Source of the DNA: a virus
Taxonomy: Duplodnaviria; Caudoviricetes
DNA: 64,000 bases
Direction: 5' to 3' (one strand)
IMG/VR virus record: IMGVR_UViG_3300035390_000014
Coordinates: 64,001-128,000 of that record
The translations under genes were made by a program, and so were the position numbers. Shown here piece by piece: positions 53,397 to 63,759 of the stretch. How positions within the stretch are numbered: position 1 is the first letter of the stretch; each line of letters starts with the position of its first letter. The notes under the pieces are model-generated. The model made no database searches. It worked only from the letters and a program-made list of their open reading frames with translations, and was not told the origin of the DNA.

Positions 53397-53490
53397 GAAC
53401 GAACGAAAAAGGCACGGGATCACGTGGTCCCACGCAAAGTCACAGGTCTTTTATAAAGGATAAAAGATGGCTGGTCTACCGAAAACGTTC
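53397..53490 (+). ncRNA. c-di-GMP-I (GEMM-I) riboswitch, copy 2
   Basis: Same core as copy 1 with different P2/P3 loops; P1 GAACG/CGTTC. Confidence 0.82.
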
Positions 53491-60025: not shown

Positions 60026-60697
60026 ATGTTATGTGATTATGGTTGTGGGCAAGAAGCTAGATATACAATAGGTAATGGTAAATTATGTTGTTCTAAACAT
60101 TATAATTCATGCCCGGAACTTAGAAGAAAGAATAGTAATTCTGTTAAAAAAAGTAGAGAAAAAGAAAAAGAGTTGGGAATAAAAAGATATTCTCCACAAT
60201 ATTTAAAAGTTAAATGTCAATATTGTGATAGAATAACTACACAAAACATGATAAAAAGACATGAAAAATTTTGTTATTTAAATCCATTAAATATAAAATT
60301 ATGCCCTGTTTGTAATAAACCAGTTAAAGATTATAAAAATGCAACTACATGTTCTCAACAATGTGGTCAAAGATATTTCAGAAGTATGTTTGATAAGGTT
60401 AGACGTGAAAGAAATATGAGTTGGATTGATGATTTATATGATGGTGGTTCACATTATAAGACTATTTGTTTTAGATATCATGAGAAAAAATGTATTATAT
60501 GTGGTGAAGATATAGCAGTATCTGTTCATCATTATGATGGAAATCATGATAATAATAAACCAGAAAATTTAGTTCCTTTATGTATGAATCATCATGTTTA
60601 TATACATAGTACAGTTGAAAATATGTATATTATAAAAGAATGTGTTGATGAATATGTTAAGGAATATTGTAAGAAAAACAATTTAATGCACCTGTAA
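60026..60697 (+). CDS. HNH homing endonuclease
   Basis: CDYGCG module; CIICGE....VHHYDGNHDNN.PENLVPLCMNHH. Confidence 0.9.
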   Translation: MLCDYGCGQEARYTIGNGKLCCSKHYNSCPELRRKNSNSVKKSREKEKELGIKRYSPQYLKVKCQYCDRITTQNMIKRHEKFCYLNPLNIKLCPVCNKPVKDYKNATTCSQQCGQRYFRSMFDKVRRERNMSWIDDLYDGGSHYKTICFRYHEKKCIICGEDIAVSVHHYDGNHDNNKPENLVPLCMNHHVYIHSTVENMYIIKECVDEYVKEYCKKNNLMHL

Positions 60698-60857: not shown

Positions 60858-60949
60858 GGGTTCGTCACCTAGATGGCCGATGGTACCAGACTTTTAATCT
60901 GGAGCGGATATCAATCCCCACGTGAGTTCGAATCTCACCGAACCCACCA
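60858..60949 (+). tRNA. tRNA with Lys(TTT) anticodon and 19-nt variable arm
   Basis: CCAGA-CTTTTAA-TCTGG then AGCGGATATCAATCCCCAC, T-arm GTGAG-TTCGAAT-CTCAC, A73, CCA. Confidence 0.8.
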
Positions 60950-62379: not shown

Positions 62380-62491
62380 GAGCGTGATCTAATAATCGGT
62401 AATATACGTCAGGTAGTATCAAGACAATGCAACCGGGCCTCGCCAAGAAGTACTGATGTAGATATGGGTTCAAGTCCCATTCACGCTCCCA
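62380..62491 (+). ncRNA. tRNA-like RNA with 8-bp acceptor stem and expanded anticodon arm
   Basis: GAGCGTGA/TCACGCTC-CCA; T-arm ATGGG-TTCAAGT-CCCAT; CGTCA/TGATG stem encloses about 40 nt. Confidence 0.65.
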
Positions 62492-62694
62492 ACCATTAAA
62501 CGTATATAGGTGAAATGATGGATGAAAAACTAGATGTATTACAAGATGATTTAAAAATTAAACCCATATCTAAATCAAAATGGTATCAGTTTAATAAAAA
62601 AGAAAAAGAAGGTCTGGCCATTACAGGTATTATAACTGCACTTGTTAGTGTAGGTTTTTATTACTTTATTAAGATTGCTGGATAATAACAATTG

Positions 62695-62783
62695 TGCGCT
62701 ATAGAGTAGTTGGTCAACTCACTTGTCTCATAAGCAAGACTCCCTAACCGGAGACGTAGGTTCGAATCCTACTAGCGCTCCCA
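62695..62783 (+). tRNA. tRNA with CAT anticodon and 17-nt variable arm
   Basis: CTTGT-CTCATAA-GCAAG then ACTCCCTAACCGGAGAC; U1.U72 mismatch; C73; CCA. Confidence 0.8.
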
Positions 62784-63085: not shown

Positions 63086-63157
63086 GCCGAGAATCTAAGG
63101 AGATATCTATGTTTCATACGCAAAGACTAGTGGATTCGATTTCCACTCTCGGCACCA
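63086..63157 (+). tRNA. Atypical tRNA(CAT) with shortened D-arm
   Basis: GCCGAGA/TCTCGGC-ACCA; loop TTCATAC; T-arm GTGGA-TTCGATT-TCCAC. Confidence 0.6.
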
Positions 63158-63177
63158 AATTAAATTGGGAAGAGAAT

Positions 63178-63759
63178 ATGAATTATATAATTTATAAAAC
63201 TACAAATAAAATAAATTCTAAAATTTATATTGGAGCTCATAAAACAAATAATCTTAAAGATAATTATTTGGGATCAGGAGATCTTCTAATTAAAGCTATT
63301 AAGAAATATGGAACTAAAAACTTTAAAAGAGAAATACTTAAAATTTTTGATAATTCTGATGATATGTATATTATGGAAAAAATGATTGTAAATAAATGTT
63401 TTGTTGAAAGATTAGATACTTATAATTTAAAAATTGGAGGAGTAGGAGGATGGGATTCAGAACCTCGTAAAAGATTTAAATTATTAATGGAAGATGAAGA
63501 ATATGTTAAATGTTTTAGTGAAAAAATTAAAAATGGACAAAAAATTTATATTAAAGATCCTGAAAAAAGAAAAACTTTTTTAAATAAAACTCACAATGAA
63601 GAATCAAAAAAGAAAATAAGTAATTCTAAAAAAGGCACAGGATGTGGAAAAAATAATTCACAATTTGGAACAATGTGGATAACCAATAATATTAAAAATA
63701 AAAAAATAAAGAAAACAGATCTTATTCCAGAAGGATGGAATAAGGGAAGAAAATTCTGA
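63178..63759 (+). CDS. GIY-YIG homing endonuclease (SegA-like) with NUMOD repeats
   Basis: YIIYKTTNKINSKIYIGAH...YLGSG; NSQFGTMWI...PEGWNKGR; ATG 63178 preferred over start overlapping the tRNA. Confidence 0.9.
   Translation: MNYIIYKTTNKINSKIYIGAHKTNNLKDNYLGSGDLLIKAIKKYGTKNFKREILKIFDNSDDMYIMEKMIVNKCFVERLDTYNLKIGGVGGWDSEPRKRFKLLMEDEEYVKCFSEKIKNGQKIYIKDPEKRKTFLNKTHNEESKKKISNSKKGTGCGKNNSQFGTMWITNNIKNKKIKKTDLIPEGWNKGRKF

Follow-up and report, generated by a model that had tools for sequence, protein, structure and literature searches.

By textbook accounts, long variable arms in bacteria belong only to the Leu, Ser, Tyr and Sec tRNAs, with G73 as the discriminator base of Ser and A73 as that of Leu and Tyr, and the initiator tRNA is among the most constrained RNAs of the cell. 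The closest published cases to the phage tRNA analysed here, which we call tRNA(CAU), are the nematode nev-tRNAs (PMC3333845) and the allo-tRNAs (PMC5389517). These share with it a long variable arm and an anticodon foreign to Leu and Ser, but they are class II bodies of Leu or Ser identity with swapped anticodons that mistranslate, whereas tRNA(CAU) is the reverse construction, a class I initiator body carrying an arm. Bacterial tRNA-fMet is marked by a 1:72 mismatch, by G2:C71, C3:G70 and A11:U24 for formylation, and by three anticodon-stem G:C pairs (PMC7949028). Phages mostly avoid encoding tRNA-fMet, as reported in a study in which variable arms are unmentioned (PMC10264068), and full-text searches, with most subscription journals outside their scope, turned up no paper on long variable arms in initiator-type tRNAs.

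Compared with E. coli tRNA-fMet of the metZWV/metY type (PMC7949028), tRNA(CAU) has the same CAU anticodon within a CUCAUAA loop, a likewise unpaired 1:72, and the same G2:C71, C3:G70, G4:C69, A11:U24 and G30:C40. It differs in U1.U72 in place of C-A, in C73 in place of A73, in U29:A41 and U31.G39, which leave it without the three consecutive G:C pairs at 29-31/39-41, in a 17-nt paired arm in place of the short variable loop of 4-5 nt, and in being phage-encoded. Because defining features are absent (two of the three G:C pairs are lacking, the discriminator is C73 and the variable arm is long), tRNA(CAU) was not filed as a canonical tRNA-fMet. From the class II tRNAs (Leu, Ser, Tyr, Sec), with which it shares a paired extra arm between the anticodon and T arms, it is set apart by the CAU anticodon, C73, a 4-bp D stem, A11:U24 and a short, 4-bp arm stem. 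A further likeness is found in tRNA-Met t23 of the cultured Bacteroides phage crAss001 (MH675552 5721-5807, 87 nt), which also combines a CAU anticodon, a 1:72 mismatch (C-A), G2C3G4 and a hairpin arm (20 nt), but which differs in its D arm GUGUAAUGGCAACAU (U11:A24), G30G31:C39C40, A73, the lack of an encoded CCA and an unrelated arm sequence. The Bacteroides host of crAss001 makes no use of Shine-Dalgarno sites, whereas the tRNA(CAU) phage uses them; tRNA(CAU) adds to the long-armed initiator-like tRNAs a member from a phage with a Shine-Dalgarno-using host, and one with U.U, C73 and a G at -1.

The tRNA(CAU) gene and its genome setting

The window, the whole stretch of 64,000 nucleotides that was analysed, corresponds to bases 64001-128000 of the 202,719-bp IMG/VR virus record IMGVR_UViG_3300035390_000014, which has a G+C content of 30% and is about 65% complete by CheckV estimate. 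ARAGORN called a tRNA-Met(CAU) of 89 nt, encoded CCA included, on the plus strand at window positions 62695-62783, and Rfam RF00005 matched it at full length (model positions 1-71, the arm being an insertion) with 57.2 bits, well over the gathering score (29); RNAfold returned a cloverleaf with an extra hairpin. The 5' strand of the acceptor, UGCGCUA (62695-62701), begins with an unpaired U1 followed by initiator-like G2, C3 and G4, and the 3' end (62773-62783) is made up of UAGCGCU, closing with U72, then C73 at 62780 and CCA at 62781-62783. The acceptor thus consists of U1.U72 atop six Watson-Crick pairs, and a G at 62694, position -1, lies opposite C73. The D arm GAGU-AGUUGGUCA-ACUC (62704-62720) has a 4-bp stem with A11:U24, and the anticodon arm CUUGU-CUCAUAA-GCAAG (62722-62738) holds CAU at 62729-62731 above a stem with U29:A41, G30:C40 and U31.G39. 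In the 17-nt variable arm (62739-62755), a 4-bp stem CUCC/GGAG (62740-62743 with 62750-62753) encloses the 6-nt loop CUAACC. The T arm, GUAGG-UUCGAAU-CCUAC (62756-62772), gives an acceptor/T architecture of 7/5, not 8/4 or 9/3.

The gene is intact, and the anatomy given in the initial annotation, namely a 17-nt CTCC/GGAG arm, U1.U72, an anticodon stem that is not GGG/CCC, C73 and G-1, was recovered in full from the sequence, ARAGORN and RNAfold. The intact stems and loops and the encoded CCA led to the rejection of a pseudogene.

On the plus strand of the record, in the interval from 106 to 148 kb, ARAGORN placed a tmRNA and all 26 of the tRNA-type genes that it called. One of them, called as Leu-CAA, is a tRNA mimic and not a tRNA; the 25 true tRNAs all encode CCA (25/25, tRNA(CAU) among them), and the set covers 20 of 20 amino acids and includes a CUA suppressor. 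tRNA(CAU) was the sole CAU tRNA in the 203-kb record by ARAGORN, Rfam, a loose regular-expression scan and the covariance model R1 described below; by ARAGORN, every other amino acid has a phage elongator tRNA in this record, and both tRNA-Ile(UAU) and tRNA-Ile(GAU) are encoded. Shine-Dalgarno-like motifs preceded 113 of the 221 long ORFs, against 9/221 at a control offset, and TAG serves as a stop codon, which together indicate that the phage follows the standard code and that its host recognises Shine-Dalgarno sites. In the 203-kb record, itself about 65% complete, Pfam searches found no formyltransferase, deformylase, MetRS, TilS, IF3, IF1 or HisRS; tRNA(CAU), whatever its role, would therefore work with host enzymes. 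A promoter and terminator scan gave chance-level matches only.

Small ORFs flank tRNA(CAU), and homing endonuclease genes lie close by, one of HNH type at 60026-60697 and one of GIY-YIG Seg-like type at 63109-63759 on the plus strand (phrog_314, E 1e-39); such genes are usual neighbours in phage tRNA clusters, as exemplified by T4 SegB (PMC2330249). The region also contains several tRNA-like elements. At 63086-63157 (plus strand) lies one that neither ARAGORN nor Rfam called, with a perfectly paired 7-bp acceptor GCCGAGA/TCTCGGC, A73, CCA and a canonical T arm, an anticodon-like loop UUCAUAC (CAU) and no proper D arm (R1 19.2 bits, E 5e-5). Its D region contains an AAGGAG ribosome-binding site and its anticodon stem the ATG (63109) of the GIY-YIG endonuclease gene; the element could be what is left of an elongator tRNA-Met gene after the start of the endonuclease gene overwrote it, or a tRNA-like processing signal. 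An unannotated 106-nt tRNA-like RNA occupies 62381-62489 (plus strand) in a gap without ORFs; it combines an acceptor AGCGUGA/UCACGCU, G-1, C73 and CCA with a T arm AUGGG-UUCAAGU-CCCAU, about 58 nt replace the D and anticodon arms, and it scored 12.8 bits with R1 (E 0.003) with a fold z-score of -2.1. Beyond the window, 941 nt past its end, a second Tyr-like tRNA-shaped gene on which ARAGORN was silent directly follows tRNA-Tyr (genome 128941-129024; acceptor GCACGGA/TCCGTGC, A73, CCA, altered anticodon region). Within the window, and thus in a phage genome, RF01051, the model of the c-di-GMP-I riboswitch aptamer, also matched at 53401-53483 (plus strand) with 39.1 bits, its gathering score being 35.

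Relatives, open acceptor end and extra arm

Relatives were collected by pattern scans. The first, run on viral contigs with a CUCAUAA loop, a long gap and the GGTTCGAATCC T loop, matched at least 119 viral loci holding at least about 100 different long-armed CAU tRNAs, most of which start with [U/C]GCGGG and end with CCCGC[U/A]A, an initiator-type acceptor that the pattern did not specify. The second, which took the D arm and anticodon arm of tRNA(CAU) and left the variable region free, matched at least 118 loci in viral contigs and only 71 in prokaryotes (one genome each from 185,579 species). The two viral scans and one genome scan together gave at least 124 unique relatives sharing the D arm and anticodon arm, mostly from phage contigs; this sample is skewed by the search patterns, yet in all three scans the acceptor end was left unspecified. 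Megablast of 4 kb and blastn of tRNA(CAU) against cultured phages returned no match, nor did the exact D-arm pattern of tRNA(CAU) in viral contigs.

All 124 listed relatives have G30:C40 and U31.G39, the latter being the defining feature of the clade searched for, whereas 29:41 varies (G:C 57, A:U 59, U:A 8, the last also found in tRNA(CAU)). At 1:72 the counts were C-A 31, U-U 18, U-A 18, A-A 15, C-U 12, A-G 9 and a few others, with G:C or C:G in 0/124; G2C3G4 occurred in 112 of the 124 and A73 in 102. Their variable region spans 13-21 nt in 38 and 4-6 nt in 86. An alignment of the 38 long-arm members (A1) revealed positions 2-7 paired in 100% with many compensatory changes, 1:72 paired in 18% and then solely as A:U or U:A, and an invariant A11:U24. 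This contrast between 100% at positions 2-7 and 18% at 1:72 looks like what would be expected from selection on an open acceptor end. Compensatory changes were found in every stem across the relatives, and the comparison as a whole shows a clade selected for a cloverleaf with a non-paired 1:72. The earlier view that the identity of this tRNA cannot be read from the sequence thus gives way to its placement, by the homolog survey, in a family with selected 1:72 non-pairing.

Among the fetched loci, a wider set of 308 unique CAU tRNAs of phages exhibited the same association between the D stem and the acceptor end: with R11:Y24, 1:72 was a mismatch in 95/145 and G:C in 7/145, and with Y11:R24 it was G:C in 57/144. 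A covariance model (R1) built from the 38 long-armed members, tRNA(CAU) excluded, scored tRNA(CAU) at 82.9 bits (E 1.5e-21), and the next tRNA in the genome, that for Lys, at 44.9 bits. Pairwise identity of tRNA(CAU) was 75-81% to initiator-like relatives, many of them with short variable loops, the closest among the matches listed being L166 (81%), and 54-63% to the other tRNAs of the same phage, class II included. These values, the 4-bp D stem and A11:U24 speak against the initial proposal of a class II body fitted with a class I anticodon. The corresponding candidate, a class II body with a swapped anticodon, was rejected on account of the 86/124 listed relatives with 4-6 nt loops and the low identity to the class II tRNAs of the phage.

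Those members of the clade that have a short loop were found in filamentous cyanobacteria as well as in about 30 Patescibacteria genomes, where they are the CAU tRNAs with initiator-type ends; they seem to be the ordinary initiator tRNAs of these Patescibacteria, which would make U31.G39 compatible with initiation. By these comparisons tRNA(CAU) belongs to a mostly phage-borne, initiator-like clade. The initiator-like flavour noted at the outset proved real, residing in an initiator-type body shared with the relatives. The refuting case named at the outset, a common known phage tRNA-Met variant, held in part: phage metagenomes contain the type in abundance and a sister form is annotated as tRNA-Met in the cultured crAss001, but no paper describing it was found.

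The extra arm was judged by folding each sequence alone, since the MAFFT register within the arm was inconsistent (57% paired). Folded singly, 37 of the 38 long-arm members formed a hairpin of at least 3 bp, with a mean of 4.7 bp and a mean z-score of -4 relative to shuffles, usually laid out as one free nucleotide, a stem of 4-6 bp, an often A-rich loop of 5-6 nt and one or two free nucleotides. The stem sequences vary freely among the 38. In L166 the arm reads CUUC/GAAG where tRNA(CAU) has CUCC/GGAG, around an identical CUAACC loop, which constitutes a compensatory change. The extra arm is, on this folding evidence, a conserved hairpin, and it is an insertion into an initiator-type body, because the same body occurs with and without it. 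At least three unrelated types of arm were found on initiator-like phage tRNAs: that of tRNA(CAU), that of crAss001, and one on a body with a full GGG/CCC stem, for example in the 735-kb phage LR756501.

Long variable regions are also present in other tRNAs of this phage, namely tRNA-Lys(UUU) (92 nt, window 60858-60949, plus strand) and, beyond the window, tRNA-His(GUG) (87 nt, genome 130894-130980) and tRNA-Gly(UCC) (83 nt, genome 143364-143446); these regions exhibit no sequence kinship to each other or to the arm of tRNA(CAU). An 87-nt Gly(UCC) tRNA in the relative L148 forms a better hairpin than that of this phage. Among the fetched phage loci, tRNAs of at least 80 nt made up 25% of Asn, 18% of Ile, 15% of Cys, 11% of Thr, 8% of Lys and 8% of His tRNAs. 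The initial annotation had spoken of a systematic remodelling of tRNA bodies, which is fair as a trend, Lys, His and Gly tRNAs being long as well; the arms share no sequence, however, and those on different tRNAs look independently acquired.

Several genomes carry more than one CAU tRNA. Four were found in each of L078 and L043, one short-loop and initiator-like, one long-armed and two in which 1:72 is paired, making them elongator- or Ile2-like; in L237 three of the kinds are present, and in L005 two different long-armed types plus an elongator. In six Prevotella/Bacteroides genomes (L242, L249, L255 and L261 among them) a long-armed initiator-like tRNA lies in a conserved tight array of seven or eight tRNAs (Ser, Ser, Phe, Tyr, Trp, Met, His, Cys). 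A short initiator of the normal kind is present as well in both genomes of this group that were searched, those of L242 and L249, and one of them has a third initiator-like CAU tRNA (L302) with an odd anticodon stem. In a separate set of viral contigs (L114, L023, L065, L093, L118 and L104), long-armed CAU tRNAs have fully paired acceptors of the GGCCC/GGGCC type and, in several, an anticodon stem that opens with G27.U43; they look like elongator Met or tRNA-Ile2 with an enlarged body.

Competing readings of the tRNA

Elongator tRNA-Met has a Watson-Crick 1:72 and Y11:R24, and tRNA-Ile2 has a paired 1:72 and A73. tRNA(CAU) has neither elongator mark, as its U.U mismatch and A11:U24 show, and most likely it is an initiator-like Met tRNA of the phage, reliant on the MetRS, formylase and IF2 of the host. 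Our main reading, to which we assign a probability of roughly 0.58, is that tRNA(CAU) would be a functional, phage-encoded, initiator-type tRNA of a clade that retains the formylation and initiator marks (a weak or unpaired 1:72, G2:C71, C3:G70, G4:C69 and A11:U24) but has an altered anticodon stem, and in which about one third of the sampled members carry the arm. Confidence in an ordinary initiator is not high, because tRNA(CAU) is the sole CAU tRNA here and because multi-CAU phages exist elsewhere. In L078, L043, L237 and L166, with three or four CAU tRNAs each, the long-armed type stands beside a more canonical short initiator-like tRNA as well as elongator and Ile2-like tRNAs; since it is found there as a possible additional species, the long-armed type may do something besides ordinary initiation.

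The best-surviving alternative, though an unlikely one, is an elongator or dual initiator/elongator tRNA-Met that supplies Met at internal AUG codons, with a retained G-1:C73 that could close the acceptor end and so admit EF-Tu. It draws on the fact that tRNA(CAU) is the only CAU tRNA among 25 true tRNAs covering 20 amino acids, a situation repeated at the related locus L148, where the long-armed type is the only CAU tRNA among 17. In mitochondria a single tRNA-Met serves both roles, and C73 together with the weak anticodon-stem signature could reduce formylation and P-site preference. One tRNA can also sustain E. coli in both initiation and elongation when formylation is weakened (PMC7949028), which makes a dual role conceivable. 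However, U1.U72 and A11:U24 are the very marks that divide initiators from elongators, and a strong 1:72 pair was never seen among the listed family members, although one substitution, an easy route, would restore it. L166, moreover, carries a separate ordinary elongator tRNA-Met beside its long-armed type. The open 1:72 and A11:U24 make a plain elongator role improbable.

Decidedly less probable is that tRNA(CAU) has no part in translation and instead lures host defence enzymes that target tRNAs, acts as a regulatory RNA or is a gene in decay. This phage is rich in tRNA-like RNAs unable to decode, and in several phages the type comes on top of two or three other CAU tRNAs, hinting at a role past the three standard ones. 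Such readings have to contend with intact stems, core tertiary nucleotides that are all in place, a CUCAUAA loop and encoded CCA that a pseudogene would not retain, and the compensatory changes found in every stem among the relatives.

The acceptor end invites another reading, in which RNase P leaves G-1 paired with C73 and HisRS charges the tRNA at least partly, or some other factor reads the end. Among the ARAGORN tRNAs of this genome, only tRNA-His and tRNA(CAU) combine a G at -1 with C73, the arrangement of the bacterial tRNA-His end, where G-1:C73 is likewise followed by CCA; the tRNA-like RNA at 62381-62489, 300 nt upstream, also has G-1, C73 and CCA. A first table of the listed relatives pointed the same way, with a G at -1 in 3/7 of those with C73 against 8/117 of the others. 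A dedicated scan for initiator-like relatives with C73 and CCA then gave at least 53 unique tRNAs, and among the 53 listed the base at -1 was T in 29, A in 15, C in 6 and G in 3, a background rate, these three being the ones already in the first table. In the nearest listed relatives -1 is T, combined with U73 in L166 and with A73 in L148. C73 is, by this survey, a recurrent variant among phage initiator-like tRNAs; G-1:C73 covariation as a family feature was rejected with a G in 3/53, and the His-like interpretation offered in the initial annotation found no backing among the relatives. With an anticodon that is CAU and not GUG, a G-1:C73 pair that would have to stack on the U.U mismatch, an end that is not conserved in relatives and no phage HisRS found in the Pfam search of the record, charging as His appears very improbable, and the His-like end is not a conserved design but a possibility for this phage alone.

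Least credible of all is a tRNA-Ile2 whose C34 host TilS would convert to lysidine so that AUA is read as isoleucine: the CAU anticodon is common to tRNA-Ile2, acceptor positions 2-7 (GCGCUA) are identical to those of the phage tRNA-Ile(GAU) and long-armed Ile2-like tRNAs are known in other phage contigs (L114, L023, L065), but the phage has no need for a CAU-derived AUA reader because it has tRNA-Ile(UAU), which already reads AUA here as in the relatives L148, L239, L085 and L005, and tRNA-Ile(GAU), and the unpaired 1:72, C73 in place of A73 and A11:U24 are non-Ile2 traits within a family whose signature is that of an initiator, with no TilS found in the record by Pfam search.

Proposed route through initiation and its meaning

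If tRNA(CAU) is an initiator-type tRNA, as the main reading holds, host RNase P and 3' nucleases would cut it from a long plus-strand transcript. By the identity rules, host MetRS would charge it with Met through the CAU anticodon, host Met-tRNA formyltransferase would formylate the Met, and the 1:72 mismatch would keep EF-Tu off. IF2 would then deliver it to the P site of the 30S subunit, where phage protein synthesis would start.

The arm and the altered stem may bear on a conflict over initiator tRNA. VapC-type toxins cut initiator tRNA between A38 and C39 (PMC4105405), and position 39 of tRNA(CAU), at this cleavage site, is G. Host nucleases that degrade the initiator tRNA of the cell could plausibly be hindered by G39 and the extra arm from cutting tRNA(CAU), and a nuclease-resistant tRNA(CAU) might keep phage initiation running while the host initiator is depleted. 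Phage tRNAs have been proposed to evade anticodon nucleases by loop mutations (PMC10264068); tRNA(CAU) likewise corresponds to a toxin-targeted tRNA with the cleavage-site nucleotide 39 altered, but here a stem-closing pair has been changed and an arm added. We tentatively entertain, as possible but doubtful, that tRNA(CAU) is a private phage initiator, which the arm and the altered 31:39 would hide from VapC-type toxins or from a phage shut-off enzyme while host MetRS, formylase and IF2 could still use it. A more exotic variant, conceivable for tRNA(CAU) alone, would add a retained G-1:C73, a closed His-like end and a dual role as initiator and elongator.

If the private-initiator reading is true, phages would be using arms on class I tRNAs, here also on those for Lys, His and Gly, as a general means of counter-defence. 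Many phages, at least one of them a cultured crAss-like phage, appear to carry initiator-type tRNAs that break both textbook rules, on where long arms occur and on how constrained the initiator is, and that are nevertheless under purifying selection. Such long-armed initiator-like tRNAs could be ready scaffolds for orthogonal initiator tRNAs with an aptamer-like handle. If they do initiate, they would reveal how much of the initiator signature is dispensable, would provide a natural case of an altered tRNA body with its identity retained, and may expose a phage-host conflict over the start of translation.
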